32,000 nucleotides of DNA from Pseudidiomarina andamanensis. GTDB taxonomy: Bacteria > Pseudomonadota > Gammaproteobacteria > Enterobacterales > Alteromonadaceae. A model generated the notes under the pieces. The model searched no databases and had not been told where the DNA came from. It worked only from the letters and a program-made list of their open reading frames with translations. The stretch is from positions 2,340,001-2,372,000 of the forward strand of contig NZ_CP032551.1 of NCBI RefSeq assembly GCF_009734345.1, written 5' to 3'. A program made the position numbers and the translations under genes. Positions 5,605 to 31,803 of this stretch are shown here, in pieces (within the stretch, counting starts at the first letter, position 1; the number at the start of each line of letters is the position of its first letter).

Positions 5605-5688
5605 AAAGCGTTATTCGTTATTGGTTATTGGTTACTCGAAGTTTTGTTTAGGTTTTTCGAATAACGATTAACGAATAACGAACAACGA
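5605..5688. repeat. Heptamer-array palindromic element, copy D (hscB-hscA spacer, inside the isc operon)
   Basis: The left arm is AAAGCGTTATTCGTTATTGGTTATTGGTTACTCGAA (to 5640). A 15-nt T-rich loop follows. The right arm is TTCGAATAACGATTAACGAATAACGAACAACGA (5656-5688). Confidence 0.88.
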
Positions 5689-5702
5689 AATAGAGGTTTT
5701 AA

Positions 5703-7601: not shown

Positions 7602-7616
7602 AGTAACGAGGTTTTT

Positions 7617-10750: not shown

Positions 10751-10853
10751 AAAAGCGTTACTCGTTATTCGTTAGTCGAGCGCTTCGCTTGTCGTTAAGC
10801 CCGACTACGAATAACGAATAACCAATAACGAATAACCAGTAACGAACAACGCC
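10751..10853. repeat. Heptamer-array palindromic element, copy E (ndk-rlmN spacer)
   Basis: The left arm is AAAAGCGTTACTCGTTATTCGTTAGTCGAG (10751-10780). The right arm is CGACTACGAATAACGAATAACCAATAACGAATAACCAGTAACGAACAACGC (10802-10852). Confidence 0.88.
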
Positions 10854-10866
10854 GTTAAGGTTTTAT

Positions 10867-12000
10867 ATGAATGCTGTAGACAAAAAAGTGAACTTACTCG
10901 ACTTGAACCGCGAAGGTATGCGCGCGTTCTTCAAAGAGTTGGGTGAAAAACCATTTCGCGCCGACCAGGTCATGAAGTGGGTTTATCACTATTGCGTCGA
11001 CGACTTCGATCAAATGACCAACCTCAACAAGGTCTTACGAGAGAAGCTCAAGCAGGTGGCCGAGATTCGGGCGCCTGAAGTGCGTATGCAACAGCAATCA
11101 TCAGACGGCACCATTAAGTTCGCAATGACCTTATTCGATGGTCAGGATGTGGAAACCGTATGGATTCCAGATCGTGATCGTGCCACCTTATGCGTGAGCT
11201 CGCAGGTGGGTTGTGCACTGGAGTGCACGTTCTGTTCAACCGCGCAGCAAGGCTTTAACCGCAACCTCAAGGTTGCGGAAATTATCGGCCAAGTATGGCG
11301 CGTGAACAAATTGCTCGGCGCCTTTGGCGACACCGGCGTGAAAGCCGTTACCAACGTGGTGATGATGGGCATGGGCGAACCGTTGCTCAACCTGAACAAC
11401 GTGGTACCAGCAATGGATCTGATGCTAGATGACAATGCCTTTGGTTTATCCAAACGTCGCGTCACGCTCAGCACCTCAGGCGTTGTACCGGCGCTTTACA
11501 AGCTGAAAGAAGAAATTGATGTTGCCCTCGCCATTTCACTTCACGCGCCGAACGATGAGTTGCGTAATGAAATTGTGCCAATCAATAAGAAGTACAACAT
11601 TCAAGAATTCTTAAAAGCGAGCCGCGATTATATCGACGGCAGCAAAGCCAATAAAAACATCACCATTGAGTACGTGATGCTTGATCATATCAATGACTCA
11701 ATGGAACAAGCCGCCGAACTTGCAGAGCTTCTCAAAGATACGCCGTGCAAGATCAACCTCATTCCGTTTAATCCATTCCCAGGTTCAGACTATGGTCGTT
11801 CGAGCAATTCACGCATCGACCGATTCGCCAAAGTGCTGATGGAAAAAGGCTACATTGTGGTGGTTCGACGCACTCGTGGTGACGACATTGACGCCGCATG
11901 CGGTCAGCTGGTGGGGGATGTCATTGACCGTACCAAGCGCATTCTGAAGAAGCAGCAAGCACAGCGCGGTGGTGATGGAATTCAAGTGAAAGCGGTTTAA
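10867..12000 (+). CDS. rlmN: 23S rRNA/tRNA m2A methyltransferase RlmN (radical SAM)
   Basis: It has the radical-SAM motif CALECTFC, an RlmN-type N-terminus ([12 protein letters not shown]) and a C-terminal DIDAACGQL. The ndk-rlmN synteny supports the call. Confidence 0.93.
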
Positions 12001-12885: not shown

Positions 12886-13968
12886 ATGGCACAAGATAAA
12901 GACTTATTTGAAGAAAATGCAGAGCCGGCTGAGCCACAGCCAGAGCCGTATACTGGCGAAACGCCCGGTCAAATTTTTCGCGAAGCACGTGAAGCAAAAG
13001 GCTTAAGTACGCAACAGGTAGCAGATAACTTACGCCTGCGTAAGGTTGTTGTTGAATACATGGAAGCCGATGATTACGACCAGTTATCGTCGCCAACCTA
13101 CGTGCGTGGTTATTTGCGCTCGCTCAGTAAAGCGCTTGAAGTTGACGAAGCACGAGTGTTTGAAGCCTACAGAAAAATGGGCTTCGGCCAGGTGGTGCCA
13201 AGCACTATCACTATGCAGAGTTTCTCGAAGCGCAAAGTACGCGAACGCAACGATAACCGCTTGATGCTAATTAGCTACTTAATTATTGCCGTTGTCATTG
13301 CGATGGCCGTGGTGTGGTGGTGGCAAGATAGCAATGCTGGCAATATGTTTGCAGACGGCAACGGCAATAACGGTGCCAGCCAACAAATCACCGAACGTCA
13401 GCCAACGCGTCGAACCGAAACGCAAGTGCGCGAGCAGTTGCAAAGCTCGAACAACACGATGCAATCGAACACCGTGGATGATAGCGGAAATGATTCAGGC
13501 ACTACCTCAGGCAGCGTTGACGCAACCGAAACAACAGCCGACAACGCCAGCAAGAACACCAGCAGCCCGATTGTAACGGGCGCAGATAACTCGCAAGAAT
13601 CGCCCGTTGTCACCGAAGAGCCAGAGCCAACTACCCGCACCGACAGTCGCTCGGCTAGTACCGATAATAATCAGGTTGTTGCCGACACCAGCCGTGAAGC
13701 CCCAACCGTTACTGAACCTGTCGCCGCCAACCAAGCGAGTCTCGTCATGGAATTCAGTGGCGCTTGCTGGATCAAAGTCACTGATGGCACCGGCACCGAT
13801 ATCGCCATTGGCGTCAAAGAAGCGGGTTACAGAATGCCGCTGACGGGCGAGCCGCCATTTGATATCATTTTATGCAAGCCAGAATTCGTCGAATTGACGT
13901 ATAATGGAGAACCGGTTGATTTGAGCAATTATCGCCGCAACCGCAGCGTAACCATGACCTTGAACTGA
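12886..13968 (+). CDS. rodZ: Cytoskeleton protein RodZ
   Basis: Architecture: N-terminal XRE-type HTH (GQIFREAREAKGLSTQQVADNL), one TM helix (LISYLIIAVVIAMAVVWWW), a low-complexity S/T/N/D linker and a conserved C-terminal domain. The rodZ-ispG synteny supports the call. Confidence 0.85.
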   Translation: MAQDKDLFEENAEPAEPQPEPYTGETPGQIFREAREAKGLSTQQVADNLRLRKVVVEYMEADDYDQLSSPTYVRGYLRSLSKALEVDEARVFEAYRKMGFGQVVPSTITMQSFSKRKVRERNDNRLMLISYLIIAVVIAMAVVWWWQDSNAGNMFADGNGNNGASQQITERQPTRRTETQVREQLQSSNNTMQSNTVDDSGNDSGTTSGSVDATETTADNASKNTSSPIVTGADNSQESPVVTEEPEPTTRTDSRSASTDNNQVVADTSREAPTVTEPVAANQASLVMEFSGACWIKVTDGTGTDIAIGVKEAGYRMPLTGEPPFDIILCKPEFVELTYNGEPVDLSNYRRNRSVTMTLN

Positions 13969-13970
13969 TA

Positions 13971-14056
13971 AAAGCGTTAATGGTTATTCGTTATTGGTTA
14001 CTCGAAAAAATTAAAACCAACCACGAATAACGATTAACGAATAACGAGTAACGAAT
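13971..14056. repeat. Heptamer-array palindromic element, copy F (rodZ-ispG spacer)
   Basis: The left arm is AAAGCGTTAATGGTTATTCGTTATTGGTTACTCGAA (13971-14006). The right arm is CACGAATAACGATTAACGAATAACGAGTAACGAA (14022-14055). It ends 3 nt before the ispG ATG. Confidence 0.88.
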
Positions 14057-14058
14057 TT

Positions 14059-15168
14059 ATGCATTTAAACCCCATCAAACGTCGACCTTCTCGCCGTATC
14101 TACGTAGGTAACGTGCCGATTGGTGATAGCGCACCGATAGCCGTGCAATCGATGACCAACACCGAGACCACTGACGTGGCCGCCACGGTGAAACAGATTC
14201 AAGCCATTGCCAATGCCGGTGCTGACTTGGTGCGGGTGAGTGTGCCGACGATGGATGCCGCCGAAGCATTCAAATTCATCAAGCAGCAAAGTCCAATTCC
14301 ACTGGTGGCCGATATTCACTTTGACTATCGCATTGCCTTGAAAGTAGCGGAATACGGTGTCGACTGCCTGCGAATTAACCCAGGCAACATCGGTAACGAG
14401 CAACGTATTCGTGCAGTGGTTGATGCTGCGCGTGATCGTGGTATTCCTATTCGTATTGGAGTCAATGGCGGCTCGCTTGAAAAAGATTTGCAAGAAAAAT
14501 ACGGCGAGCCTACACCAGCCGCATTGGTTGAATCTGCCATGCGTCATGTGGATATTCTTGACCGCCTAAATTTCCATGACTTCAAAGTGAGCGTGAAAGC
14601 TTCCGATGTATTCTTGGCGGTTGAATCGTACCGTTTACTGGCGAAACAAATCGAACAACCATTGCACTTAGGTATCACTGAAGCAGGTGGCTTACGTAGT
14701 GGCTCAGTAAAATCATCGATTGGCCTTGGCATGCTGTTAGCCGAAGGTATTGGCGATACGTTGCGTATTTCACTGGCAGCCGACCCAGTGGAAGAAGTGA
14801 AAGTTGGCTTTGATATTTTAAAATCACTGCGTATTCGCAGCCGCGGCATCAATTTTATCGCTTGCCCAAGCTGTTCCCGCCAAGAATTTGACGTGATTGG
14901 TACCGTGAATGCGCTCGAGCAACGCCTTGAAGACATCACTACACCAATGGACGTGTCGATTATCGGTTGTGTGGTAAACGGCCCAGGCGAAGCTTTAATT
15001 TCTCATGTTGGCTTGGCTGGCGCGAAGAACAAAAGTGGTTTTTACCTCAATGGCGAGCGCCAAAAAGACCGTCTCGACAACGCCGATTTGGTCGATGAGC
15101 TCGAAAAACGTATCCGCGACCAAGTAAAACGTCTAGAAGCTGAACAGATTCCCGTGAAGCAAGCGTAA
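14059..15168 (+). CDS. ispG: 4-hydroxy-3-methylbut-2-en-1-yl diphosphate synthase IspG
   Basis: [24 protein letters not shown] is nearly identical to E. coli IspG. Cluster cysteines are present ([15 protein letters not shown]). Confidence 0.95.
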
Positions 15169-15245: not shown

Positions 15246-16496
15246 GTGGCAAAAAATATACAAGCAATTCGCGGCATGAACGACATCCTGCCGAATCAAA
15301 CCCCAGCGTGGCAATACGTTGAAGGTGTGATTCGTCAGGTGGCAGCCCAATATACCTACCAAGAAATTCGCATGCCGGTACTCGAAAGCACCGACCTGTT
15401 CAAGCGCTCCATTGGTGAAGTGACCGATATCGTCGAAAAAGAGATGTACACTTTCGATGATCGCAACGGTGACAGCTTAACCTTGCGCCCGGAAGGCACC
15501 GCCAGCTGTGTGCGCGCCGGTAACGAGCACGGCTTGCTATATAACCAAACCCAGCGTTTATGGTACTTGGGTCCAATGTTCCGTCATGAACGCCCGCAAA
15601 AAGGTCGCTATCGCCAGTTTCATCAGTTTGGTATTGAGGCGTTTGGTATGGATACACCAGACATTGATGCTGAAGTGATTTTGCTGTCAGCTCGTTTGTG
15701 GCAGGCATTTGGTATTAGCGAACAAGTCGAATTACAACTCAATTCATTAGCATCGAACGAAGCGCGGGCGCGATATCGTGACGCGTTACGTGAATTTTTG
15801 CGTGCTCATGAAGATAAGCTGGACGAAGACTCCAAGCGTCGTTTAGATACCAACGTGTTGCGTGTGCTCGATAGCAAATCGCCGGAAACCCAAGCGGTAC
15901 TTGCTGATGCACCAAAGTTATCGGAATATTGGGACGACGAATCGCGCGAGCATTTTAATGGCTTATGCAAACGTCTCGATGCGGCGGGTATTAAGTACGT
16001 ATTGAACGAACGTTTAGTCCGTGGTCTCGATTACTACAACCGTACCGTGTTTGAGTGGGTCACCACTGAACTTGGCGCGCAAGGCACGGTTTGTGCCGGT
16101 GGCCGATACGACGGTTTGGTTGAGCAGCTTGGCGGTAAACCAACGCCAGCTGTAGGCTTTGCTATGGGCATGGAACGCTTGGTCTTGTTGTTGGAGTCGC
16201 AAGGCAAAATTCCACCAGAGCAAGCTATTGATATTTACGTGATTGCAGCAACTGAAGCGGCGGAACTAATCGCCCCAGCCGTTGCCGAACAAATTCGAAG
16301 TGCCAAGCCGCAACTCAAAGTACAATTGCACAGCGGCACCCAGAACATGAAGAAGAAGTTGGCAAAAGCTGACAAGTCAGGCGCCACCTACGCCTTGCTT
16401 GTCCGCGACACCGATTTCGAACTAAAGCACCTGCGCGACCGCACCACCGACGCTATTGTGCTTAACAGCATCGACGAGCTATCGTTTCACGAATAA
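15246..16496 (+). CDS. hisS: Histidine--tRNA ligase
   Basis: It uses a GTG start. [40 protein letters not shown] and GGGRYDGL-like motifs are present. The last codons and stop (CAC GAA TAA) fall within a half heptamer element. Confidence 0.95.
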
Positions 16497-16517
16497 CGAT
16501 TAACGAACAACGAATAA
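16488..16517. repeat. Heptamer-array element, solo right arm (hisS 3' end to the yfgM spacer)
   Basis: CACGAATAACGATTAACGAACAACGAATAA is almost identical to the right arms at 14022 and 5658. I could not find a matching left arm upstream. It includes the hisS stop codon. Confidence 0.75.
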
Positions 16518-16536
16518 TGCATTTGAGGTTTTAAAA

Positions 16537-17142
16537 ATGGAAACTGAAGAACAACAAGTCGAACGAATTAAACAGTTTTGGAACGAACACGGCAAAGGCA
16601 TCGTTGCCGGCCTCGTCGTTGGTTTTGCGCTTTTCTACGGCTGGCGCTACTACGACGCCCAAGTGCGCGCTGACCAAGAAGCAGCTTCTGAAAAGTTCGA
16701 AAGCATTCTCGTACAACTTGAAGCCAATCAAGAAAATAGTACTGCTGCGGCACAAGAGTTTGTTAGCTCAAGCGACAGCACCTATGCGCTTTTAGCTGCA
16801 TTGGAACTTGCTAAACATGCTGTAGAAAGCAACGACTACGCGACTGCAGTCAGCGCATTACAAACCGTACGCGACAACGCGCAACCGGCTTTACGTGCTG
16901 TGGCAGATATTCGTCAAGCACGTATCTTGCTGGCACAAGAGCAATACGACGCCGCGTTAGCTGCTGCAGAAGCCGCCGCAACCGTTGAAGCATTTAAAGC
17001 ACAAGCTGCTGAGCTGAAAGGCGACATCTTGTTAGCTCAAGGCGATAACGCCGGTGCACGTGCAGCCTATCAAGCCGCTCTCGACGCTGGTGCACAAGGC
17101 ATCGCCGAGATCAAACTCAACAGCATTGTGGCGGGTTCATGA
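16537..17142 (+). CDS. yfgM: YfgM-family membrane-anchored TPR-like protein (ancillary SecYEG-associated)
   Basis: It has an N-terminal TM segment (GIVAGLVVGFALFYGW) followed by an Ala-rich helical domain. It sits in the conserved slot between hisS and bamB, and its stop overlaps the bamB start. Confidence 0.75.
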   Translation: METEEQQVERIKQFWNEHGKGIVAGLVVGFALFYGWRYYDAQVRADQEAASEKFESILVQLEANQENSTAAAQEFVSSSDSTYALLAALELAKHAVESNDYATAVSALQTVRDNAQPALRAVADIRQARILLAQEQYDAALAAAEAAATVEAFKAQAAELKGDILLAQGDNAGARAAYQAALDAGAQGIAEIKLNSIVAGS

Positions 17143-18332: not shown

Positions 18333-19931
18333 ATGTTACCCGTAGTTGCCCTGGTAGGGCGCCCGAATGTGGGCAAATCAACCTTGTTTAATCGGCTTAC
18401 CCGTACTCGGGACGCCTTGGTTGCAGACTTTCCTGGCTTAACGCGAGACAGAAAATACGGCCAGGCCAACTACGACGGTTACCAATTTATTGTCATCGAC
18501 ACCGCTGGTGTTCACGGTGACGAAGAAGGCATTGATGCTGAAATGGCATCGCAGTCATTGCGCGCCATTGATGAAGCAGACGTGGTGCTGTTCATGGTTG
18601 ACGCACGCGATGGTATTACTGCTGCCGACATGGGCATCGCTGCGCATTTGCGCCGCCTTGGCAAAAAGGCTTACGTGGTCGCCAATAAAATCGATGGTAT
18701 TGATTCCAACGCTGCCCGCGCTGACTTCTTCGAACTTGGCTTAGGCGACGTGCACGGTATTGCCGCCGCACACGGCCGTGGCGTCGAACAATTGCTACAA
18801 GAATGTTTTGACCCGCTGTTAGAAGAATATCCAGGTGTCGTAGCCCGTCGTTCCACGACGGGTGACGAAGTCGTTAATCTCGACGCCGAAGGCAATCTAG
18901 TCAATGCCGAAGGTGAAATTGTCGAACCCGACGAGGACGGCAACGTCTACGACGCCGACGGCAACATTGTCGACGCCGATGGCAACATCATCGATCACGA
19001 AGGCAATATCATTGGCCAACTCGGTGATCGTAGCCACGACGAAATTGATTACGACGCACTGCCATTAAAACTCGCCATTGTCGGCCGCCCGAACGTGGGC
19101 AAGTCAACGCTGACCAACCGCATTCTTGGTGAAGAACGGGTAGTGGTATACGACATGCCAGGCACCACCCGTGATTCAATTTATATTCCAATGGAGCGCG
19201 AAGGTCGCCAATACATCCTAATCGACACCGCTGGTGTGCGTCGCCGTGGTCGTATCGACGAAACTGTCGAAAAATTCTCGGTGATTAAAACCCTGCAAGC
19301 GATTGAAGATGCGAACGTGGTCATCGCCGTTATTGATGCGCGCGAAACCGTCTCCGATCAAGACCTAAACCTGATTGGTTTCGCTTTGAACGCTGGCCGT
19401 TCAATCGTCATCGCCGTCAACAAATGGGATGGCTTGTCGCATGATCACCGCGAAGAAATTAAACGCGAACTCGATCGCCGCTTAGGCTTTGTCGATTTCG
19501 CTCGCGTACACTTTATCTCAGCCCTGCACGGCAGTGGCGTTGGTAATTTGTTCGAATCGGTGCTTGAAGCTTATGCCTCAGCATCGGCGCGTGTTGGCAC
19601 CGCCAAATTAACGCGTATTTTGGAAACCGCAGTAGAAGATCATCAACCACCATTGGTGAGCGGACGCCGCGTCAAACTCAAGTACGCCCACGCCGGCGGC
19701 TACAACCCGCCACGCGTCATTATTCACGGCAACCAAGTTGACTCGCTACCAGGCTCGTACAAACGCTATCTGATGAATTACTTCCGTAAATCATTAGGCG
19801 TGATGGGCACCCCCATCAAAATCGAATTCCGCGAATCCGTCAACCCATACGCCGGTCGCAAAAACCAGCTCACGCTCTCGCAAACCCGCAAGCGCAAGCG
19901 CCTCATGAAGTTCCTAAAGAAGAAAAAGTAG
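18333..19931 (+). CDS. der: Ribosome-biogenesis GTPase Der (EngA), with an expanded inter-domain linker
   Basis: It has two GTPase domains (two [10 protein letters not shown]-loops, two DTAG motifs, two NKxD motifs) and a KH-like C-terminal domain with a basic tail. Confidence 0.95.
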
Positions 19932-21545: not shown

Positions 21546-22451
21546 ATGCAGATACAGAACACGCACGTCAACGCAATAATTACTGCGGTTTGCGCAGTAG
21601 CGGCAGTATGGTTGGGCGCGCAACTAACCTGGCAGCTAATTACGCCTGCCAGCGAGGTGCCTTCGGGACCGATTCAAGTTACCACACAAAGTGCTGAGTC
21701 ATCGTACTCAGCGCGTTCTATTGTTGCGCTCGATTTATTTGGTGCCGCCTCAGAAGCAACACCACAAGCAGCATCGAATGCGCCAAAAACATCGCTGAAT
21801 ATCCGCTTGTTAGGTGTGTCTGCATCAAACGTGCCTGAACGCTCCGCTGCAATTATTGAACGCAGCGGCAAGCAAGAAGTCTACGTGATGGGTGACAAGC
21901 TGGAAGGTACCCAAGTTATTATTAAAGAAATCTATGCTGATCGGGTAATTCTGGATAATAACGGTCGCCTTGAAACGCTCGAGTTAGAAGGCATTGGCGA
22001 GCTCAGTGAAGGGCTGTCGTTAACCATGGCGAACATGACTGGCAACGTGGTTCGTACGTCTGGCCGTGCTGTACGCGAGGGTGGTTCAAGCCCAAGTCGC
22101 AGTACCAGCGATACCCAAATCACCGCGTCAGATGTCAACCCTGAAAGTCTTCTCGAATTTATTCAAATTACTCCTGTACGGGGCGGAAGTGGCATACGAG
22201 GCTATCGATTAAGTGCCGGTAAAAATCCTGAACTGTTCCGCCAAGCAGGTTTTCGTGACGGCGATTTAGCCGTCGCGATTAATGGGCAAGATTTAACGAA
22301 TATAAGTACCGCGATGAAAATCACCAGCGAACTCGGTGATATGACACAAGCCACAGTCACTGTGCTACGCGGCAATGAATCGGTCGACTTGCAACTCGAT
22401 ATTCGAGACCTTCCTAGCGAAGTCGTGCAAGACCAAGATCAAGGGAATTAA
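21546..22451 (+). CDS. gspC: Type II secretion system protein GspC (TM + HR + PDZ)
   Basis: It has an N-terminal TM helix (AIITAVCAVAAVWLGAQL) and a C-terminal PDZ-like segment (GYRLSAGKNPELFRQAGFRDGDLAVAING). It is the first gene before gspD. The SD is weak. Confidence 0.8.
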   Translation: MQIQNTHVNAIITAVCAVAAVWLGAQLTWQLITPASEVPSGPIQVTTQSAESSYSARSIVALDLFGAASEATPQAASNAPKTSLNIRLLGVSASNVPERSAAIIERSGKQEVYVMGDKLEGTQVIIKEIYADRVILDNNGRLETLELEGIGELSEGLSLTMANMTGNVVRTSGRAVREGGSSPSRSTSDTQITASDVNPESLLEFIQITPVRGGSGIRGYRLSAGKNPELFRQAGFRDGDLAVAINGQDLTNISTAMKITSELGDMTQATVTVLRGNESVDLQLDIRDLPSEVVQDQDQGN

Positions 22452-22460
22452 GGGATAAGT

Positions 22461-24569
22461 ATGCGTAAAACCTCATTGGCATTGGCCATCACACTCGGCG
22501 CCGCGCTTTCGGGAACCTTCCACGATGTGAGTGCGCAGCAATCACGCCAGGCGACGCAGCAACAACGCCAAACTGCAGACGAACCGGTTGAATACGCCGC
22601 TAGTTTCAAAAACACCGATATCACTGAATTTATTCAGGTGGTGGGACGCAACTTAGGCCGCACTATTATTATCGATCCGGATGTGCGCGGCCGCATTGAC
22701 GTACGCAGTTATGATGTGATGAACGAAAGCCAGTACTGGCAGTTCTTCTTGAACGTGCTGGATGTATATGGCTTCGCAACTATCGAAATGGAATCCGGTG
22801 TGATTAAAGTCATGCGCGACAAAGACGCACGCAACGGTGCGATTCCGGTGGTCGATGATAACTCGCTTGGTGGCGATACCTTGATTACCCGCGTAGTGCC
22901 TGTGGCGAACGTCAGCGTGCGCGAATTGGCGCCGTTATTACGCTTATTGAACGACCAAAGCGGTGGCGGCAACGTGGTGAGCTATGATCCATCCAACGTG
23001 ATTATGATCACCGGTCGTAGCGAAACCGTGCAGCGCTTGGTGGAAATTATCGAACGCGTTGATCGCGCGGGTGACCAAGACGTAACGGTGGTGAAACTTG
23101 AATTTGCATCGGCGTCAGAAGTGGTGCGTATTGCTTTAAGTTTGTTTGAGAAAGCGAATGATGGCACACCGCCATTGTTGATTCCCAAAATTGTTGCCGA
23201 TGAGCGAACCAATAGCGTCGTCATCAGCGGCGAGCCGCGTGCGCGTGAACGCGTGATGAAGCTGATTAATCAGCTCGATCAAGATTTGAAGACCGAAGGC
23301 AATACGCGCGTCTACTACTTAAAGTACGCGAAAGCTGAAGAGCTGGTGGATGTGTTGCAAGGTGTTAGTCAAAGTTTGCAGGCTGAAAAAGAATCAGCAT
23401 CGAACGCAGCCGGCACAACTGCAGCCGCGCGTCGCTCAAGTTCATCAAACGGTCAAATTTCAATTAGCGCGCATGATGCATCGAATTCATTGGTGATAAC
23501 CGCACAGCCAGACTTGTTAGCCAGCCTTGAAAGTGTGATTCGTCAACTCGACATTCGCCGCGCGCAGGTGCACGTTGAAGCGATTATCGTTGAGATTATG
23601 GAAGGCGATGGCGTCGATTTCGGTCTGCAATGGATTAGCGAAGACGGCGGTATGGTGCAATACAACAACGGTCGCCAAGCACCAATTGGTCAGGTGGCTG
23701 CGGGTGCGTATTTGGCGCGCGAACAGCCAGGCACCGAAACCACTACCATTGTCGATGGCAACGTGGTGACCACGCGTGAACCGGACCGTCCAGGCGATGT
23801 GTCGTTGTTGGCGCAAGTGCTGCAGAACGTGAATGGCATGATGATTGGTGTGGTGAAGAATGACTGGGGTGCCATTTTGCAAGCGGTAACCACCAATACG
23901 AATTCAAATATTTTGGCAACGCCATCAATTATGACGGTCGATAACGAAGAAGCGTCGTTCTTGGTCGGCCAGTCAGTGCCAACAATTACCGGTTCAACCA
24001 CTGGTTCAAATAACGACAATCCGTTCCAAACCGTCGAACGTGAAGACGTGGGTATTAAATTGAAGGTTACGCCGCAAATTAACGAAGGCAGCGGCGTACA
24101 GCTTGTGATTGAGCAGGAAGTATCAAGCATCAGCGGTGCCACCTCGGTCGATATCACCATCAACAAACGTGAATTGAAAACCGTAGTGATGGCTGACGAT
24201 GGTGAAACCATTGTACTTGGCGGCTTAATTGACGAAGACGTACAGGAATCGGAATCGAAAGTACCAATTTTGGGCGATATTCCGTTCTTGGGACATCTGT
24301 TCAAGAGCACCTCTACGTCACGTCAAAAACGGAACTTGATGGTGTTCTTGCGTCCGACCATTGTGCGTGATGGTGGGGTAGCCACGCAGATCTCGTCGCG
24401 TAAATACAACTACATTCGCGCCGAGCAATTGAAGGCTCAAGAAGATGGCATTTCGTTGATGCCGCTAACCGACCAACCCGTATTACCAGAGTGGGATGGC
24501 CCGTTAACCTTACCGCCTTCGTTCGAAAAATACATGGAAGAAGAGAAAAAGGGCAGTGGTAATGACTGA
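22461..24569 (+). CDS. gspD: Type II secretion system secretin GspD
   Basis: It has a signal peptide, N0-N3 domains and a secretin domain ([15 protein letters not shown]...[10 protein letters not shown]). Confidence 0.95.
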
Positions 24570-26085
24570 TATCGCGAACGTGGCCGCGCAAGTGGCACCG
24601 CGACGGTTGCCATTTGCGTTTGCGAAACGCCACGGAGTGGTGGTGGCTTTTGCCGGCGCCGCCGATGACGGCACTGCAAATGATGCCATCGTGCATGCGC
24701 GCCATGGTGTAAGCTCGCAAGCTTTGCTCGAAGTGCGTCGCGTATTAGGCGCACCGTTCGTGCTGCAAGAGCACAGCGCTGAAGAATTCGAAGCGATTTT
24801 GACGCAGGCGTATCAGCGCGATTCGTCAGAAGCCAAGCAGTTGATGGAAGATATTGGCAACGAAAGTAATCTATTTTCGCTGGCTGACGAATTACCGCAA
24901 ACTGAAGACTTGTTAGAAAGCGAAGACGACGCGCCAATTATCAAACTCATTAACGCCATGTTGTCAGAGGCCATTAAAGAAGGTGCTTCTGATATCCACA
25001 TTGAAACGTTTGAAAAAGATTTGCTAGTACGCTTTCGTATCGATGGCGTGCTGCGCGAGGTGATTCGTCCGAATCGTAAACTCAGCTCATTGCTCGTGTC
25101 GCGGATTAAGGTTATGGCGCAGCTCGATATCGCTGAGAAGCGTGTACCGCAAGACGGGCGTATTAGTTTGTTGATTGCTGGCCGTGCAGTCGATGTGCGG
25201 GTATCAACCATGCCATCGAATCATGGCGAACGAGTGGTGTTGCGTTTGCTTGATAAAAACAATGCTCGCTTGAACCTCGAACAGCTTGGTATGACCGAAG
25301 CGAACCGGCGTATTTTCTCGCAACTGATTAAAAAGCCACACGGAATTATCTTGGTCACGGGGCCGACGGGCTCGGGTAAATCCACCACCTTGTATGCAGG
25401 CTTGATGGAAATTAACTCGCGTGACCGCAATATTTTGACGGTGGAAGACCCAATTGAGTACTCCATCGAAGGCATTGGCCAAATGCAAGTGAATCCGAAG
25501 GTGAACATGACCTTCGCCCGCGGTTTACGTGCTATTTTGCGTCAAGACCCTGATGTGGTGATGGTGGGTGAGATACGAGACGTCGAAACCGCGCAAATTG
25601 GTGTGCAGGCGTCGTTAACGGGTCACTTAGTACTATCGACCCTACACACGAATACGGCTGCTGGCGCAATTACACGCTTGGAAGATATGGGCGTAGAACC
25701 ATTCTTGCTTTCATCATCGTTGTTAGCTGTGCTGGCGCAGCGTTTGGTGCGCACCTTGTGCGACGATTGTAAAGAGCCGTATCAGGCCTCCGCTGACGAA
25801 CTTGCCTATGTTGCAGACGCAGCGGTAGACGGCGGTGCGCAGTTGTATCGTGCGGTGGGCTGTGAAAAATGTAATCACACCGGTTATCGCGGGCGTACCG
25901 GTATTCATGAATTATTGGTGGTAGATGAGCGCGTACGTGAGTTGATTCATAACGGCCACGGCGAGCAAGCGATTGAAAAATATGTGCGTGCTTTAGCGCC
26001 ATCCATTCGTGACGATGGTTTGGCGAAAGTGATTGCCGGCGTCACCACCTTAGAAGAAGTTTTGCGCGTAACGCGCGAGGAGTAA
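24562..26085 (+). CDS. gspE: Type II secretion ATPase GspE
   Basis: It has Walker [10 protein letters not shown], Asp/His boxes and a tetracysteine motif (CDDC...CEKC). The ATG at 24562 overlaps the gspD stop (ATGACTGA). The track's GTG 24556 is an alternative start. Confidence 0.95.
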
Positions 26086-26088: not shown

Positions 26089-27339
26089 GTGGCAGCGTAT
26101 GCATTTCAGGCGTTAAACGCTAGCGGCCGCAAAACCAAAGGCGTCATTGAAGCTGATACCGAACGTCAGGTGCGCGCACAATTGCGCGAGCAGGGGCTGA
26201 TTCCTGTTGCTGTTGAATTGGCAGAGGAGGGGACCAGTCCCAAAGCCGGAGCTAGATCCGGAGCTGGGCCTGCACCCCTCCTCAAACGCTTGCAAACGCG
26301 CGGTGTTGGCGCAGCCGATTTAGCCCTGATTACCCGCCAATTAGCGACGTTAGTCTCGGCGGCACTGCCAATTGAGCAAGCGTTGTTTGCGGTATCTGAG
26401 CAGACCGACAAGCCACGATTACAAAAACTGATCATGGCGGTACGCTCGAAAGTGGTCGAAGGCTATTCGTTAGCAGAAGCCATGTCGGAATATCCGCATG
26501 TGTTCGATAAGTTATTTACCGCGATGGTGGCAGCCGGCGAGCGCTCTGGGCACTTAGACGAAGTGCTGAATCGCTTGGCTGATTACACCGAACAGCGTAA
26601 CCGGCTCAAAGGCCAATTAGTGCAAGCGCTGGTGTATCCAACTATTTTGACACTGGTTGCCATTGGCGTGATTATTTTCCTGTTAGTGAGTGTGGTGCCA
26701 CAAATTGTGGAACAATTTAGCGGGCTTGACCAAGACTTACCGCCAACCACCACCTTCTTATTAGCGGTAAGTCAATTCTTACAAAATTATGGGCTGTTTC
26801 TACTGGGGATAATTCTAGTGGGGTTAGTGGTGGGCTCCCAATTATTGCGTAAGCCATCACGGCGAGACAAATTCGATGCCTGGGTATTGAAAGTGCCGCT
26901 GTTTGGGCGTGTGATTAAAGGCGTGAACACCGCTCGTTTTGCTCGTACGCTGAGTATTTTAGCTGCTTCGGCAGTACCTTTATTAGACGGGTTACGAATT
27001 ACCGGCCGCGTGTTAACGAATCGTGCCATGCAAATTGCTGTCGAAGAAGCCTGCGACCGCGTGCGTGAGGGCTCATCGTTACGCGCCGCACTCGCCCAAA
27101 CCAAATTATTTCCGCCAATGATGCTTCACATGATTGCCGCCGGCGAAAAATCAGGCGAACTCGAACAATTACTCGGCCGCGCCGCCGATAACCAAGATCG
27201 CGATTTCGAAACCACCATGAACGTGGCGCTAAAAATATTTGAACCGGCACTGATCGTTGTCATGGCTGGCGTGGTCTTATTGATTGTACTTGCCATCATT
27301 CAACCAATACTTGAGCTCAACCAAAGCGTAGGACTTTAA
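26089..27339 (+). CDS. gspF: Type II secretion inner-membrane platform protein GspF
   Basis: It uses a GTG start. The N-terminus is MAAYAFQALNASGRKTKGVIEAD, followed by two GspF repeats and three TM segments. It contains a 60-nt repeat-derived insert (codons 46-65). Confidence 0.95.
   Translation: MAAYAFQALNASGRKTKGVIEADTERQVRAQLREQGLIPVAVELAEEGTSPKAGARSGAGPAPLLKRLQTRGVGAADLALITRQLATLVSAALPIEQALFAVSEQTDKPRLQKLIMAVRSKVVEGYSLAEAMSEYPHVFDKLFTAMVAAGERSGHLDEVLNRLADYTEQRNRLKGQLVQALVYPTILTLVAIGVIIFLLVSVVPQIVEQFSGLDQDLPPTTTFLLAVSQFLQNYGLFLLGIILVGLVVGSQLLRKPSRRDKFDAWVLKVPLFGRVIKGVNTARFARTLSILAASAVPLLDGLRITGRVLTNRAMQIAVEEACDRVREGSSLRAALAQTKLFPPMMLHMIAAGEKSGELEQLLGRAADNQDRDFETTMNVALKIFEPALIVVMAGVVLLIVLAIIQPILELNQSVGL
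26224..26283. repeat. GC-rich palindromic element, long variant P8, in-frame inside gspF
   Basis: The sequence is GAGGAGGGGACCAGTCCCAAAGCCGGAGCTAGATCCGGAGCTGGGCCTGCACCCCTCCTC. It has perfect 9-bp terminal inverted repeats (GAGGAGGGG/CCCCTCCTC). It is exactly 60 nt and starts on a codon boundary (gspF codons 46-65). Confidence 0.7.
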
Positions 27340-27348
27340 GGGAAAACC

Positions 27349-27765
27349 ATGAAAAAACAATCCGCATTCAGCCTTATCGAAGTAATGGTCGTTATCGCCA
27401 TTCTCGGCCTGTTAGCCTCATTAATTTTGCCAAACGTGCTCGGCTCAGCAGACCAAGCCAACCGCCAAAAAGCGCGCACCGACATCATTGCGCTGGAAAA
27501 TGCCTTGGCACAATATCGTCTTGATAACGGCACCTTCCCATCTACTGAGCAAGGCCTCGAAGCGTTAATAGAAGAACCAAACGTTGATCCGCGCCCACGT
27601 AACTACCGTCGCGGCGGCTACATCCAGCGTTTACCTGCCGACCCATGGGGCAACGAATACTTGTTATTAAGCCCAGGTGAATTCGGCGATATCGACATCT
27701 TCTCTGCTGGCCCAGATGGTCAAACCGGCACCGACGACGACATCGGCAACTGGAACATCGAGTAG
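27349..27765 (+). CDS. gspG: Major pseudopilin GspG
   Basis: A prepilin leader is followed by FSLIEVMVVIAILGLLA. The C-terminal GspG motifs DPWGNEY and GPDG are present. Confidence 0.95.
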   Translation: MKKQSAFSLIEVMVVIAILGLLASLILPNVLGSADQANRQKARTDIIALENALAQYRLDNGTFPSTEQGLEALIEEPNVDPRPRNYRRGGYIQRLPADPWGNEYLLLSPGEFGDIDIFSAGPDGQTGTDDDIGNWNIE

Positions 27766-27769
27766 CACT

Positions 27770-28342
27770 TTGCGCGTAAAAGGCTTCACCTTAGTCGAAG
27801 TCATGGTCACCATGGCGGTTATCGGCATGCTGGCGCTCACCGTCAGCTTTGTGGTACCTGACAAAAAAGACGACGAAACCGCCGAAAATGCCCGAGTTTT
27901 GTACGAACGCATCCGCTATGCGCGCGAATACGCATTAGTGCGCCACGCCATTCTCGGTTTACGTATTGACGACGGGCATACGTATCGTTTTTTGCAATTC
28001 ACAGATGGCCGCTGGCAAAATCTTACCCACCGTGGCTTGCGGCAAACCGAACTCAGTACCGATATTGAGCTTTCGGTTGAAGCGGGCGATCTCGAGCTCT
28101 TGGAACAAGACGACACCGATTTAAACGAAGTATTTGCGGTTGATGAAGAAGACCTCGGTACCCGGTCAGACGACGACAAACCACCCAGCGAACCCACACC
28201 TCAATTATTTATTTTTGGTAGCGGCGATCTCCCACCATTTGAATTGTTTGTTCGTAACGTCGGCCTTGTTGGCGAGCCGGTCAGCTGGCGTATTGCCAGT
28301 ACCGACGGCATTGATATTTCGTTAGAGCGCGAAGACCGATGA
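27770..28342 (+). CDS. gspH: Minor pseudopilin GspH
   Basis: It has a prepilin-type N-terminus (RVKGFTLVEVMVTMAVIGMLAL). The only start codon giving a normal short leader is TTG 27770, 5 nt after the gspG stop. The track's ATG 27677 lies inside gspG. Confidence 0.72.
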   Translation: MRVKGFTLVEVMVTMAVIGMLALTVSFVVPDKKDDETAENARVLYERIRYAREYALVRHAILGLRIDDGHTYRFLQFTDGRWQNLTHRGLRQTELSTDIELSVEAGDLELLEQDDTDLNEVFAVDEEDLGTRSDDDKPPSEPTPQLFIFGSGDLPPFELFVRNVGLVGEPVSWRIASTDGIDISLEREDR

Positions 28343-28746
28343 TTATGCGCACCCGTGGATTCACCTTAGTTGAAGTCATGTTTGCGCTGGGCATTTTCGC
28401 CTTGGCGGCATTAGCTGCGGTGGCTGCTACCAGCCAACATCTGAACGACTTAAACTATATGCAAGACAAATCGATGGCGCAGTATGCAGCGGCCAATGCC
28501 ATGGCCCGCGTGAGTTTAAATTATCCGCCTGAGAACGGTGCTAAAGGCGTTGAAATGGTTGGATCACGCGAGTGGTTTTGGCGCTCGGAAGTGCTGAAAA
28601 CACAAACCGAAGATGTGTTTTATGTCACCGTGCGTGTGTTCGACGAGCAACCAGCTTCGGCGGAAGTGAATGATGGCGCATTGGTGGTGTTGAGCCGATA
28701 CTTGGGCCCTGATTCTGGTTCTACTGATGACGGTGCACGCCCATGA
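28339..28746 (+). CDS. gspI: Minor pseudopilin GspI
   Basis: The N-terminus is MIMRTRGFTLVEVMFALGIFALAAL. The start overlaps the gspH stop (ATGA). ATG 28345 is an alternative start. Confidence 0.85.
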   Translation: MIMRTRGFTLVEVMFALGIFALAALAAVAATSQHLNDLNYMQDKSMAQYAAANAMARVSLNYPPENGAKGVEMVGSREWFWRSEVLKTQTEDVFYVTVRVFDEQPASAEVNDGALVVLSRYLGPDSGSTDDGARP

Positions 28747-29363
28747 TGCCATATCGTCGCGGTTTCACCCTTGTTGAAGTATTAGTCACTGTCGTGATCA
28801 TGGCGGTGATTGGCCTCGCTTCGGCGTCGGTAATTAACGCGATTATGCGTACCAGCGAGCAAAGCGAAACCGCCATCGCACGGCTTGAAAAGCTCCAGTA
28901 CGGTATGCTGATTTTAGAGCAAGACATTCGCCAAATTGTGGCACGAGATAATCCGACAGGGCGATATATCTTCATTGACGAAGGCCGCTTAGGTTTTGTT
29001 CGCTCCGGCTGGTTTAATCCGCTGGGCTTATTTCCGCGTAGCGAATTGCAACCGGTGGCTTATCTCATTCGCGAAGGTAACCTCGTACGCGAACACTTTA
29101 ACTTTGTGGATGTAACCGAATCGTCCGAGCCGAAATCGCGCGTCGTGCTTGAAGGCGTCACCGCCTTCACCGCCAAACCCCTTAAGAGGGGTGCAGTCCA
29201 AGGACAGACCCCCTCCTCTGTGCGTAATAATTCGGGCGACAATGGCGACATCGAAGGCTTACCGCCGGCATTAGAAATTACCATTGAGACCGAAGCTTGG
29301 GGCACGATCACGCGGGTATTCTTGATAAATGACGGAGGTTTAAGTGAACAGCCGTCGCCGTAA
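28743..29363 (+). CDS. gspJ: Minor pseudopilin GspJ
   Basis: The N-terminus is MMPYRRGFTLVEVLVTVVIMAVIGL. There is an ATGA overlap with gspI. A palindromic repeat lies in-frame at 29184-29219. Confidence 0.85.
   Translation: MMPYRRGFTLVEVLVTVVIMAVIGLASASVINAIMRTSEQSETAIARLEKLQYGMLILEQDIRQIVARDNPTGRYIFIDEGRLGFVRSGWFNPLGLFPRSELQPVAYLIREGNLVREHFNFVDVTESSEPKSRVVLEGVTAFTAKPLKRGAVQGQTPSSVRNNSGDNGDIEGLPPALEITIETEAWGTITRVFLINDGGLSEQPSP
29184..29219. repeat. GC-rich palindromic element, copy P4, in-frame inside gspJ
   Basis: The sequence is AAGAGGGGTGCAGTCCAAGGACAGACCCCCTCCTCT. Its first 22 nt are identical to intergenic copy P2. It encodes KRGAVQGQTPSS. Confidence 0.88.
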
Positions 29364-30573
29364 TTCACGAGTAGGCATCGTGACACCGCAACATCAACGT
29401 GGTGTTGCACTGTTGATGGTGCTTCTTGTTGTGGCACTGGTATCCGTCATGGCCGTGACATTAAGTGGACGCTTACAAACAACCGTATTGCGAACCGCTA
29501 ATTTTCAACAAGCGGAACAAGCCTATTGGTATTGGTTAAGTGCTGAAGAAATTGTGCGAGAGTTACTCCAACGCGAGGTAAGCGAGAGCGACGGCGTCGT
29601 ACATCAGCAACAAATGTGGTATCAGCAAAGTCAGAGCAACAGCATTTACCCTGTCGATGGCGGGGCGATTAAGGGAGAAATTCAAGATCTGCAAAGTTGC
29701 TTTAACTTGAATTCATTGCGAGTAGAAGATGGGGTCAGCTCCGGCTCCGGAACAGGGACTGCACCCCCTTCAAATGCGCCGCAAGCGACACCGAATTCTG
29801 GCTCAACTCCGAACGCCGGCTCGAACACGGGTAATGCTAATACAGGGGGTGGCGCGACCACCGGTGGCTCACTGGCCCCTGATGTTTTACGGGAGCGTCG
29901 CAAAGCCCAGCTACGAATGCTGTTTATGGCGGTAGACGAAAATATAGAGTCGTATGCGGTGGACGTGATTGTCGATTCGCTGGCAGATTGGCTCGATAGT
30001 GATGATGATATTGACGGCAGCTACGGCGCGGAATCAGTGGATTATCAAAGTTTGCAGTTTCCGTATCGTGCAGCGAACAGTTGGCTGGTTCACGTGAGCG
30101 AATTACGCTTAGTGCGTGGTGTGACGGCGCGTATTTATAACCAAATAAAACCGTACGTGTGCGTTATTCCGCGAGATAACAGCCTGAAATTAAACATAAA
30201 TACGGTTAAGAAAGATCAGCCAGCTTTGTTGCATGCGGTAACTGTCGGCGCTATGTCGATGGGGGATGCCGCGAGTTTCTTGGCCTCCCGTCGAGAAAGC
30301 GGCTATGAAAGTATGGACGATGCGCGTAATAATGGGGCCATAAATGATGCAGCAACGCGCGGCGTGCAACCTAAATTTGTCGGCAACGTGCCCCCAAATG
30401 GCGTGACCGCACAAACCATCGGTGGCGCACTTGACGATTTAGATGTGAAAAGTAAGTATTTCCAATTAAACGCAAAAATTGGTTATGGCGATCTAACCAT
30501 GGCCGCCGAAAGCCAGTTTTTAATCACCAGCGAGACCGCTGAAGTTTTGTATCGCGGCGCAGGAGAACCCTAG
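29344..30573 (+). CDS. gspK: Minor pseudopilin GspK (unusually long, 409 aa)
   Basis: QRGVALLMVLLVVALVSVMAV is a GspK-type N-terminus. GTG 29344 has a GGAGG SD at 29333-29337 (GTG 29380 is an alternative). It overlaps the gspJ 3' end and contains a repeat-like segment plus a low-complexity tract. Confidence 0.85.
   Translation: MNSRRRNSRVGIVTPQHQRGVALLMVLLVVALVSVMAVTLSGRLQTTVLRTANFQQAEQAYWYWLSAEEIVRELLQREVSESDGVVHQQQMWYQQSQSNSIYPVDGGAIKGEIQDLQSCFNLNSLRVEDGVSSGSGTGTAPPSNAPQATPNSGSTPNAGSNTGNANTGGGATTGGSLAPDVLRERRKAQLRMLFMAVDENIESYAVDVIVDSLADWLDSDDDIDGSYGAESVDYQSLQFPYRAANSWLVHVSELRLVRGVTARIYNQIKPYVCVIPRDNSLKLNINTVKKDQPALLHAVTVGAMSMGDAASFLASRRESGYESMDDARNNGAINDAATRGVQPKFVGNVPPNGVTAQTIGGALDDLDVKSKYFQLNAKIGYGDLTMAAESQFLITSETAEVLYRGAGEP
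29725..29771. repeat. GC-rich palindromic element, degenerate long variant P7, in-frame inside gspK (boundaries approximate)
   Basis: GAAGATGGGGTCAGCTCCGGCTCCGGAACAGGGACTGCACCCCCTTC shares GGACTGCACCCC and the internal CAGCTCCGG motif with copy P6. Confidence 0.55.
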
Positions 30574-30576
30574 ATT

Positions 30577-31803
30577 ATGGAACAACTATTTATCCGCTTG
30601 AGCTCGGCTGAACGCGAGCCGCTGCACTGGCTGATTTGGAGCCCAGAGCAAAGCGAACTCATTGCAAGCGGAACGCTGAATGATCTGTCCGAATTAAGCC
30701 AACTGACCGATCATGCCCGTAGCCGCGAAGTGATTTGTTACGCGCCGGGTACCGATGTGTTGCTCACTGAAGTTGAGTTACCGAGTAGCGCGATTCGCAT
30801 GCTGCCTCAGGTGGTGCCGAATGCGCTGGAAGATGAATTGGCGCAGGATATTAGTGAGTTGCACTTCGCATGGCCTCCAGCGAAGAAGGGGGGTGCAGTC
30901 CTTGGACTGCACGTTGCTGTTGTCGCCCGCGATGCCATGCATAAATGGCTATCAGCGCTTGAGCAAGCCGACATCGAATGCGATGAAATTTACCCCGATA
31001 TTTTTATGGTGCCAGCGCCGCAGGTGCAGCCGCAGTTGTCTGAAAGCGAGGAGGGTGCAGACCCAGCTCCGGAGCAAGGACTGCACCCCACCTCCCTAAC
31101 CTTAGGCGAGACGGTGATTATTCGCACCGGGCAGTACACTGGCTTCACCACAGACACCGCGCTCGCGCCGATAGTAACCGAAGGTATGCAGTTGCAGCCG
31201 GTTGAAAAAATGGACATTGAAGTGCCGTTGAGTGTGGTCGCCACCACTTATAATGCGCGCAAATCCACGCCACCGATGATTAATCTTCGTCAGCAAGAGT
31301 TTCGCTCGCAGCACAAAAAGCGTAAAGGCGTGAAAGCAAGCACTTACAAACCTGCGGCGATTGCTGCAGGCGTGTTACTCGCCGTGGCCTACAGTTCGCA
31401 GGTGATTGAGTATGTGCATCTTGGCAATCAAAGTGAACAACTCGAGCAAGCGATTGAGCAAACTTACCGCGATGCGTTTCCGAACGAAAAACGCATTGTG
31501 AACGTGCGCTCGCAGCTTAATCGTCATTTAGAGAGCTTAGGTATGCAAGGCACAAAGTCATCGCCGCTTGAGTTATTGGCGCATCTCGAAAGTGCATTTA
31601 AAGCGAATCGCGATGTCAGACTTGAACTGATTCGATACGATGACAAGACCCTCCGCATGCAGGTAAAAGCGAATAGTTTCGCGAGCTTAGAGAATTTTCG
31701 AAAAGTGGCGAATCAAGGCGGTCAGATTGTCGTCGAGCAAGGGCCTGTGAATAACCAAAGCGGTGCTGTAAGCGGCGCCCTAACCGTGAAGAAGGACGTG
31801 TGA
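30577..31803 (+). CDS. gspL: Type II secretion inner-membrane protein GspL
   Basis: A 408-aa protein in the slot after gspK. It has a cytoplasmic domain, a single TM helix (AAIAAGVLLAVAY) and a periplasmic domain. It contains two in-frame palindromic repeat copies. Confidence 0.85.
   Translation: MEQLFIRLSSAEREPLHWLIWSPEQSELIASGTLNDLSELSQLTDHARSREVICYAPGTDVLLTEVELPSSAIRMLPQVVPNALEDELAQDISELHFAWPPAKKGGAVLGLHVAVVARDAMHKWLSALEQADIECDEIYPDIFMVPAPQVQPQLSESEEGADPAPEQGLHPTSLTLGETVIIRTGQYTGFTTDTALAPIVTEGMQLQPVEKMDIEVPLSVVATTYNARKSTPPMINLRQQEFRSQHKKRKGVKASTYKPAAIAAGVLLAVAYSSQVIEYVHLGNQSEQLEQAIEQTYRDAFPNEKRIVNVRSQLNRHLESLGMQGTKSSPLELLAHLESAFKANRDVRLELIRYDDKTLRMQVKANSFASLENFRKVANQGGQIVVEQGPVNNQSGAVSGALTVKKDV
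30884..30912. repeat. GC-rich palindromic element, copy P5, in-frame inside gspL (right flank missing)
   Basis: The sequence is GAAGGGGGGTGCAGTCCTTGGACTGCAC. The 9-bp perfect inverted repeat GTGCAGTCC/GGACTGCAC surrounds TT. It encodes KKGGAVLGLH. Confidence 0.85.
31048..31095. repeat. GC-rich palindromic element, long variant P6, in-frame inside gspL
   Basis: The sequence is GAGGAGGGTGCAG-ACCCAGCTCCGGAGC-AAGGACTGCACCCCACCTCC. Its last 20 nt are identical to P1. It is exactly 48 nt and starts on a codon boundary (gspL codons 158-173, EEGADPAPEQGLHPTS). Confidence 0.85.

Follow-up and report, generated by a model that had tools for sequence, protein, structure and literature searches.

Introduction

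Repetitive extragenic palindromic (REP) sequences of the GTAG and CGTC superfamilies are short GC-rich palindromes that lie mostly outside genes and near gene 3' ends, are tied to tyrosine transposase genes with REP flanks (REPtrons) and, for a minority, are found in frame in known genes, where they are thought to be tolerated in linkers and loops, two inserts being present in several genes (Di Nocera et al. 2013, BMC Genomics 14:522; PMC3733652). Intragenic REPs were described in that study for gammaproteobacteria as well, and in-frame repeat fusions are reviewed in PMC3184786. Here we describe a palindromic repeat family that is like these REPs in all of the above respects and that is embedded in frame in the type II secretion system (T2SS) gsp genes of Pseudidiomarina andamanensis. 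The family was analyzed in a stretch of 32,000 nucleotides (nt) of this genome (NCBI RefSeq assembly GCF_009734345.1, contig NZ_CP032551.1, positions 2,340,001 to 2,372,000 of the forward strand), termed the window, and in loci of other genomes and contigs, which are denoted by L numbers. Positions are those of the window unless a locus is named.

The intragenic copies of PMC3733652 are scattered over unrelated genes, many of them of replication and repair, whereas 7 to 10 copies are present here in one operon beside the locus of a REP-associated tyrosine transposase (RAYT). Also unlike those REPs, the copies described here recur in several lineages, with a REP variant particular to each, and have no strict GTAG or CGTC tag. 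Idiomarinaceae were not covered in PMC3733652, and a literature search found no paper on REPs of Idiomarinaceae or on REPs in type II secretion genes. Intragenic REPs themselves are known; new are the operon-wide, recurrent colonisation beside a RAYT locus and the evidence of renewal inside coding sequence (CDS).

Rickettsia palindromic elements (RPE; Ogata et al. 2000, as cited in PMC3184786 and PMC3733652) are likewise in-frame palindromes that leave genes unbroken, encode surface-loop peptides and have copies both within and outside genes. By contrast to the family described here, which is 36 to 60 nt in length, tied to a RAYT-like gene, concentrated in one operon and hosted by a gammaproteobacterium, RPEs are about 105 to 146 nt in length, specific for Rickettsia and found in many unrelated genes. 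An earlier note, made from the window sequence alone, had likened the family to RPEs and had considered the REPs of gammaproteobacteria as normally strictly intergenic. The in-frame embedding on which this comparison was built is borne out by presence and absence among relatives, while the family proved to be of the REP/RAYT type; its likeness to RPE is one of behaviour and not of membership, and no sequence relationship is expected. The statement on gammaproteobacterial REPs was too strong, as intragenic copies are documented there (PMC3733652).

The REPIN/RAYT systems of Pseudomonas and the REP/TnpA-REP system of E. coli (PMC5581495, PMC8049555; structure 4ER8) resemble this locus in that the RAYT is at a conserved position and apparently inherited vertically. 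Further points of likeness are that cognate REPs flank the RAYT and that REP sequence and RAYT change together between lineages. REPINs are doublets that occur genome-wide and outside of genes. By contrast, the copies described here are mostly singlets or nested long forms, are clustered locally and enter coding sequence.

A REP family is embedded in frame in the gsp genes

Matches to the core GGTGCAGTCCWWGGACTGCACC with up to three mismatches were found at five positions of the window (7963, 9565 and 10203 between genes, 29190 in gspJ and 30892 in gspL) compared to 0.00 expected from 100 shuffles. Three longer variants, in gspF, gspK and gspL, were found to have common ends, GAGGAGGG(T)GCAG...CTGCACCCC(H)CCTC, and to contain a second palindrome, GCTCCGGAGC, in their interior. 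The family, of which 74 distinct copies were gathered from the fetched loci, comprises two nested forms: a 36-nt form, AAGAGGGGTGCAGTCC-WW-GGACTGCACCCCHCCT, with arms of 16 to 17 nt and a loop of 2 nt, and a 48- to 60-nt form with the loop extended by CAGCTCCGGAGCTG. The 5' consensus of the copies is A-(A/T)-A-R-G-D-GGGG, with GTAGG in few copies only. The earlier note had placed eight copies in the window, five of them inside gspF, gspJ, gspK and gspL, and all eight were recovered with the four open reading frames (ORFs) unbroken (Table 1). The palindrome is free of stop codons in all six reading frames; the openness of the element in both orientations thus stands, and its limit to one frame falls. 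A Hamming scan of the rest of the window revealed no further position within 11 of 33 mismatches of the consensus, which leaves the approximately 20 kb of CDS to the left without copies, as had been claimed.

Table 1. Repeat copies and gsp genes of the window, with encoded residues and predicted folding of each copy.
Feature	Position	Strand	Context or encoded residues	Folding
Short REP P1	7954-7993		Intergenic, directly after stop of 112-residue ORF 7617-7955	-18.2 kcal/mol, z -4.6
Short REP P2	9556-9592		Between convergent ORFs 8224-9549 (+) and 9595-... (-)	-24.6 kcal/mol, z -4.8
Short REP P3	10194-10232		Between msrA-like and ndk-like genes	-36.1 kcal/mol, z -6.2
gspC	21546-22451	+	No clear copy in window strain	
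gspD	22461-24569	+	No clear copy in window strain	
gspE	24556-26085	+	No clear copy in window strain	
gspF CDS	26089-27339	+	Intact; PF00482 at residues 82-204	
Long REP in gspF	26224-26283	+	Residues 46-65, EEGTSPKAGARSGAGPAPLL	-40.2 kcal/mol, z -5.0
gspJ CDS	28743-29363	+	Intact T2SS J gene	
Short REP in gspJ	29184-29219	+	KRGAVQGQTPSS; right arm decayed	z -0.9
gspK CDS	29344-30573	+	Intact T2SS K gene	
Long REP in gspK	29725-29771	+	EDGVSSGSGTGTAPPS; decayed	z -1.0
gspL CDS	30577-31803	+	Intact T2SS L gene	
Truncated short REP, gspL copy 1	30884-30912	+	KKGGAVLGLHV	-14.1 kcal/mol, z -2.1
Long REP, gspL copy 2	31048-31095	+	EEGADPAPEQGLHPTS	-26.6 kcal/mol, z -3.5

The copies inside genes are related to the intergenic copies in nucleotide sequence, with the gspJ copy matching P2 over 23 nt and the end of gspL copy 2 matching P1 over 21 nt, so that the two matches reported in the earlier note hold. 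Its statement that each copy forms a strong hairpin applies to gspF and gspL copy 2 and weakly to gspL copy 1; in gspJ and gspK, z scores of about -1 show decay of the hairpin to background. The intergenic copies fold with z scores of -4.6 to -6.2.

At the protein level, the copies were mapped to loops and linkers by use of Pfam limits for GspF and an AlphaFold2 model for GspL (mean predicted local distance difference test score, pLDDT, 73.6). The gspF copy makes up the linker that joins the N-terminal domain to the first T2SSF domain. In GspL, copy 1 lies in the loop at residues 99-107, before the strand at residues 108-117, and copy 2 lies in a disordered loop (residues 151-167, pLDDT <50). 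The gspK copy opens an insert of about 50 residues of low complexity that interrupts T2SSK_1st, such that the 106-position profile is stretched over 159 residues, and that is missing in P. woesei (L022) and the outgroups. A low-complexity stretch of about 40 residues rich in N, S, G, T and P (29772-29900) adjoins the REP copy and is likewise missing in L022 and the outgroups; it follows the REP in the window and L024 and precedes the REP in L021 and L025. The REP-encoded peptides include GAVQGQTPSS in GspJ, GGAVLGLH and GADPAPEQGLHPTS in GspL and SPKAGARSGAGPAPL in GspF. When REP-encoded peptides were concatenated and compared to a protein database, eight word-sharing candidates were obtained with none at E <= 10, a result that is uninformative on hosts other than T2SS proteins.

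Three reading frames are in use across the CDS copies (GAVQGLHPTS, GVQSKD(C)TP and G(C)SPRTAPL). Cys codons that the frames of the element would encode are changed to Gly or Ser in the CDS copies, which argues that the copies are translated and under protein-level selection. At the gspM site, the reading frame differs between L001, a strain of the same species, and L025 by way of compensating length changes in G and C runs.

Other classes of repeat were considered. An Rfam scan of the window at gathering thresholds matched no family. The copies are mostly singlets with only occasional close pairs (L036 1440/1534 and L028 2842/2921), so that the doublet structure of REPINs is absent. With regard to miniature inverted-repeat transposable elements, direct repeats flanking the copies were not recognisable and the whole element is one palindrome. 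An uptake-sequence reading was rejected, as copies inside genes numbered 0 in 10 kb of non-gsp L046 and 0 in 20 kb of the window. The AA loop orientation was found in 6 of 8 CDS copies of L025, numbers too small and in an element too symmetric for strand bias to be inferred. Two exact or near-exact core matches are probably chance hairpins rather than members of the family: one at L018 3917-3938 (unrelated Faecousia metagenome-assembled genome, MAG; in a 739-residue ORF and followed by a T run) and one at L034 8941 (metagenome contig; in an 806-residue ORF).

Copies are concentrated in the gsp operon of one Pseudidiomarina clade

The window GspL is encoded identically on MAG contig GCA_002733325.1 (L001), a contig with 97.9% identity to the window across 11.4 kb and with two more CDS copies, in gspM and gspN, just past the window end. 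Exact cores were detected in P. tainanensis, P. marina, P. gelatinasegens, one Pseudidiomarina MAG, one 'Idiomarina' MAG and on 14 metagenome contigs, and the motif is far above chance in several related genomes. No copies of the family were found in the gsp loci of L026, L023 and L027, three Pseudidiomarina that are more distant. The family is restricted to one Pseudidiomarina clade, with zero copies at the outgroup loci. Classical GTAG-tagged REP arrays (GTAGCCCGCAGTTCTACTGCGGGT), unrelated to the family, were observed in one of these outgroups, P. homiensis (L027), at 7573-7729 and 8114-8346, which correspond to the gspH/gspI and gspI/gspJ junctions; the N-termini of GspI and GspJ are annotated as over-long and run through the arrays, and no RAYT was found within 10 kb.

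All copies within the gsp operon, whose genes overlap or directly adjoin one another, are in CDS and in frame. The window species, with the L001 tail included, has seven in-frame copies, in gspF, gspJ, gspK, gspL (two), gspM and gspN. About 10 are present in L025, in gspC, gspD, gspF, gspJ, gspK, gspL (two), gspM and gspN, nearly all of them pristine, and at least 7 in P. woesei (L022), in gspD, gspE, gspF, gspJ, gspK, gspL and gspN, all of a woesei-specific long type. Copies are thus present in gspC, gspD and gspE of relatives; a resemblance at about 22077 in the window gspC (EGGSSPSRS) was too weak to claim as a copy. By contrast, no in-frame copy was detected in approximately 26 kb of other CDS of the window species or in the non-gsp CDS of six relatives' loci, and the location of 7 of 7 window-species CDS copies in gsp has a P value of about 3e-4. 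The enrichment in secretion genes described in the earlier note is real and larger than it had stated. In 97 kb of loci outside of the RAYT/gsp neighbourhood, 26 of 27 copies are extragenic, and copies there are also in small local groups.

A RAYT-like gene flanked by the cognate REP lies beyond gspN in four lineages

A RAYT-like gene flanked by the lineage's own REP variant was found 0.1 to 2.6 kb beyond gspN in four lineages: P. woesei (L022), P. gelatinasegens (L028), the P0058 lineage (L029-31) and L046. In P. woesei, the gene encodes a 238-residue Y1 transposase, is 2.6 kb beyond gspN and has the long variant GAGAGAGGGGTGCAGACCC...GGGTCTGCACCCCTCTC on both sides. Its 61%-identical homologue in P. 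gelatinasegens is between the post-gspN MscS gene and an outer-membrane protein (OMP) gene and is flanked on both sides by GGGGTGCAGTCCCAGCTCCGGAGCTGGGACTGCACCCC, a form that recurs slightly decayed in window gspL copy 2, in gspK and in the L001 gspN copy. The third homologue, P0058, adjoins MscS and has its own variant as flanks. The fourth, P0184, is in the order RAYT-MscS-gspN and is named REP-associated tyrosine transposase by NCBI. In all four lineages the RAYT is beside or close to the post-gspN MscS gene. The best NCBIfam match of these proteins was REP_Tyr_transpos (NF047646), and the only PDB match was E. coli TnpA-REP (4ER8, E 6e-4), to which they align at the HxH and Y..NPV motifs. 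The family is of the REP/RAYT type, with RAYT-flanking REPs seen in relatives and not in the 42 kb available for the window species, in which a solo REP (L001 13365) occupies the RAYT spot. In related lineages, REP copies of the matching variant fill the RAYT neighbourhood.

L046, a distant Pseudidiomarina with a GspL 48% identical to that of the window, was found to have a different core, GGGGGCTGACACC / GGTGTCAGCCCCC, and a RAYT flanked by GAGGAGGGGGCTGACACC-N-GGTGTCAGCCCCCTCCTC. Inside gspN, gspM, gspL, gspJ, gspI, gspH, gspF and gspE, nineteen arms of the core were counted (16 exact and 3 with one mismatch); seven more are around the RAYT, two are inside the RAYT CDS and no exact arm is in other CDSs of the locus. 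The sites coincide in part with those of the other lineages (GspE N-terminus and GspF N-terminal region). Across L046 (9786-20320), the arms are often solo or tandem half-arms, as in GspL VEGGADTIEGGADTT. Elsewhere in this locus (3400-5250), three tandem units of about 490 to 550 bp are present between two YjbF-like genes, each with a small ORF (54 and 70 residues among them) and with coding repeats rich in Ala, Pro and Gly.

Insertion, replacement and renewal of coding copies

Insertions were distinguished from replacements by use of alignments of eight gsp operons. Distant orthologues do not have the element-encoded residues, and the segments are therefore not ancestral protein sequence. Presence of a copy adds 11 residues in gspC of L025 only and 17 residues in gspE of L022 only, and a copy at the gspD C-terminus is found in L025 and L022 only. 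In L022, the gspE copy is identical to the gspF copy at 49 of the 50 listed nt, short flanks included. The gspJ site carries a pristine copy in L025, encoding QEGGAVQGLHPTS, and in L023 this loop is about 18 residues shorter. The earlier note had taken all copies as insertions. This holds for the gspK insert and for gspL copy 2, both lineage-specific; homologues at <=61% identity lack gspL copy 2, as do the outgroups, and little of it is found in L021. Compared to outgroups, gspL copy 1 and the gspF copy bring hardly any extra length or none. Copies are length-neutral at three sites (gspL copy 1, the gspF linker and the gspM loop), where the outgroups show an unrelated loop whose length is similar. 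Copy 1 of gspL stands in a loop that is of equal length across all orthologues, and in the gspF linker each relative carries its own variant while the outgroups have an unrelated S/T-rich linker. Several copies are therefore loop replacements and not net insertions.

Synonymous sites are saturated at these distances, with the window species sharing 46% of third positions with L025 and 53% with its sister L024. About 40 nt of gspL copy 1 are nonetheless identical between the window and L025, yet decayed in the closer relatives L024 and L021. The CDS copies are near-identical to intergenic copies at the nucleotide level, and in each species they match its own intergenic and RAYT-flank variant. 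The copy at an orthologous site is thus of the REP variant current in that species, which points to repeated arrival or homogenisation.

Origin of the coding copies

Taken together, these results make it probable that the copies of this REP/RAYT-type family arise or are renewed mainly near the RAYT locus, and that only in-frame loop copies survive in gsp. Local clustering is apparent from 15 of 24 exact-core copies of five representative genomes that map to the 42 kb of window plus L001 tail; for P. tainanensis the figure is 6 of 9. The RAYT, or RAYT-dependent REP-templated recombination, would seed and refresh copies mainly locally. In an 11-kb gsp operon without intergenic room, survivors would then be found only in frame in permissive linkers or loops. 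The element would be pre-adapted to such sites by a length that is a multiple of three (36 or 48 nt), the lack of stops in all six frames and peptides rich in Gly, Ala, Pro and Ser. After arrival, copies may be translated and shaped by selection, with Cys codons mutated away, the frame reset by compensating slips in G and C runs, and ancestral loop residues lost so that some copies become length-neutral; the hairpins would either decay or be renewed to the species-specific consensus. In this account, the local action of RAYT is our inference.

Several observations weigh against this reading. The 42 kb at hand for the window species contain no RAYT, and none was found at the locus in L024, L021 or L025, though the CDS copies of L025 are the most pristine. 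MscS and OMP genes are nearer to the RAYT than gsp and have no CDS copies, so that proximity alone is not enough. The NCBIfam scores of the RAYT-like proteins, 72.3 to 76.4 bits, are just below the curated cut-off of 80 bits. The family has no strict 5' GTAG (or CGTC) tag. The clustering count is biased to orthologous copies and blind to the variant cores that exist elsewhere, because the exact core was taken from the window itself. Copy counts in general rest on fetched loci and matched contigs and not on a complete-genome census. The loops are too diverged for a target-site duplication or a clean empty/filled junction to be recognised. The length-neutral copies (gspL copy 1, gspF and gspM) and the solo half-arms of L046 misfit simple cut-and-paste, and one L046 arm is on a conserved GspF segment whose ancestral sequence already resembled the arm. 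A covariation count among the 74 copies revealed few double-sided (compensatory) pair changes, which gives no independent sign of structure selection beyond common descent.

Many of the CDS copies, above all the length-neutral ones, may have arisen or been renewed by short-patch gene conversion or templated repair from other REPs and not by transposition. We regard this as possible for the coding copies at large and as the likely main route for those that are length-neutral. It would account for the ancestral length kept by gspL copy 1, the gspF linker and the gspM loop, for a pristine gspL copy 1 common to the window and L025 and not to L024 and L021, which branch between them, for the gspM frame that varies between species through compensating G/C-run changes, and for the L046 arm that overlies a GspF segment with ancestral resemblance. 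Clear net insertions (gspE, gspC and gspL copy 2) speak against it, as do the lack of any conversion tract seen reaching into flanks and the little pre-existing REP similarity of the flanks of gspL copy 1.

An unlikely explanation is that hairpins are kept for a function in the operon, either as DNA sites or as RNA structures that set how stable the mRNA is or how it is processed and, through this, the stoichiometry of the subunits, with RAYT as a domesticated T2SS partner. Synteny of RAYT, MscS and gsp is held down to 48% GspL identity, two unrelated REP cores occur in the same operon and partly at the same sites (GspE N-terminus and GspF linker), L025 copies are pristine although synonymous sites are saturated, and hairpins of high stability are found in gspF and gspL copy 2, all of which fit such a function. 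By contrast, the gspJ and gspK hairpins are decayed in the window species as are many copies in L024 and L021, the gsp operons of L023 and L026 are intact without copies, Cys-avoiding changes break stem pairs, compensatory changes are few and many L046 copies are single arms, unable to fold. We also hold as improbable a functional coupling of RAYT/REP to the T2SS, in which a domesticated, vertically inherited transposase would keep renewing the hairpins as RNA or DNA control elements and as a supply of loops, with gsp as the REP 'home'.

It is similarly doubtful that insertions occur genome-wide without local bias and that gsp simply keeps more of them, having many dispensable linkers and no intergenic space. 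All mapped copies are in variable loops or linkers that are length-variable in outgroups too, and different REP families reuse the same permissive sites, which speaks for such tolerance. However, in-frame copies are absent from the approximately 26 kb of other CDS of the window species and from the non-gsp CDSs of six relatives' loci, extragenic copies are also concentrated in the gsp neighbourhood, and lineages found to have no RAYT at the locus (L023 and L026) have no gsp copies. Coincidental or compositional resemblance of ancestral low-complexity linkers to intergenic hairpins, for which it might speak that the gspF, gspM and gspL copy 1 sites hold variable linkers of comparable length in outgroups as well, is excluded by matches of 21 to 40 nt to intergenic copies compared to 0 hits in shuffles, the palindromic structure, the presence and absence among close relatives, the use of the same DNA in three reading frames and the unrelated nucleotide sequences of the outgroups.

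For the study of how REPs spread and of what RAYTs do, this locus provides a natural series, as it combines a RAYT gene with its REPs and, next to them, an 11-kb operon that lacks intergenic space. The REP core has changed from lineage to lineage, and coding copies have followed it or were replaced. The locus offers tests of local RAYT action, of REP homogenisation by conversion and of how a hairpin, selfish or domesticated, becomes protein by frame switching, Cys purging and loop replacement. Annotators and structural biologists should be aware that loops of T2SS proteins in Pseudidiomarina are REP-encoded. If the hairpins affect gsp mRNA, they would represent a new mode of operon-internal regulation.

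Intergenic copies and additional repeats of the window

Among the intergenic copies, P2 is terminator-like on both strands (and looks like a bidirectional terminator) and P1 on the minus strand. Of the CDS copies, gspL copy 1 alone passes a permissive terminator scan, in which the number of sites in the region is at chance level.

The msrA/ndk interval that holds P3 was found to differ in P. tainanensis (L004 34-779) and P. marina (L007 4009-4750), where it contains a REP-bounded pagL-like cassette in the order REP, promoter motif TACATACATTCGTGTATGTATGTAAA, 185-residue gene and REP. The window has only the solo REP P3 at this spot, with matching outer flanks. A 70%-identical pagL-like copy is directly beside the RAYT in P. 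woesei (L022 15878-16722). This pattern suggests REP-mediated gain, loss or movement of a gene. The gene between the two REPs in P. tainanensis was considered as a RAYT and rejected, as it is the pagL-like outer-membrane gene.

A second, unrelated intergenic repeat family of the window consists of heptamer arrays (CGAATAA, CGAGTAA, CGAACAA and CCAATAA) of 30 to 60 nt in both orientations. These arrays, at 292-407, 1532-1694, 2396-2579, 5604-5705, 10756-10869, 13968-14071 and 16479-16537 among others, are in nine intergenic regions, often as an inverted pair across a gene boundary, and match no Rfam family. In addition, a 21-nt tandem coding repeat (GACGCCGA[CT]GGCAAC...), with four copies listed at 18881-19021, is inside a 532-residue ORF (18333-19931).

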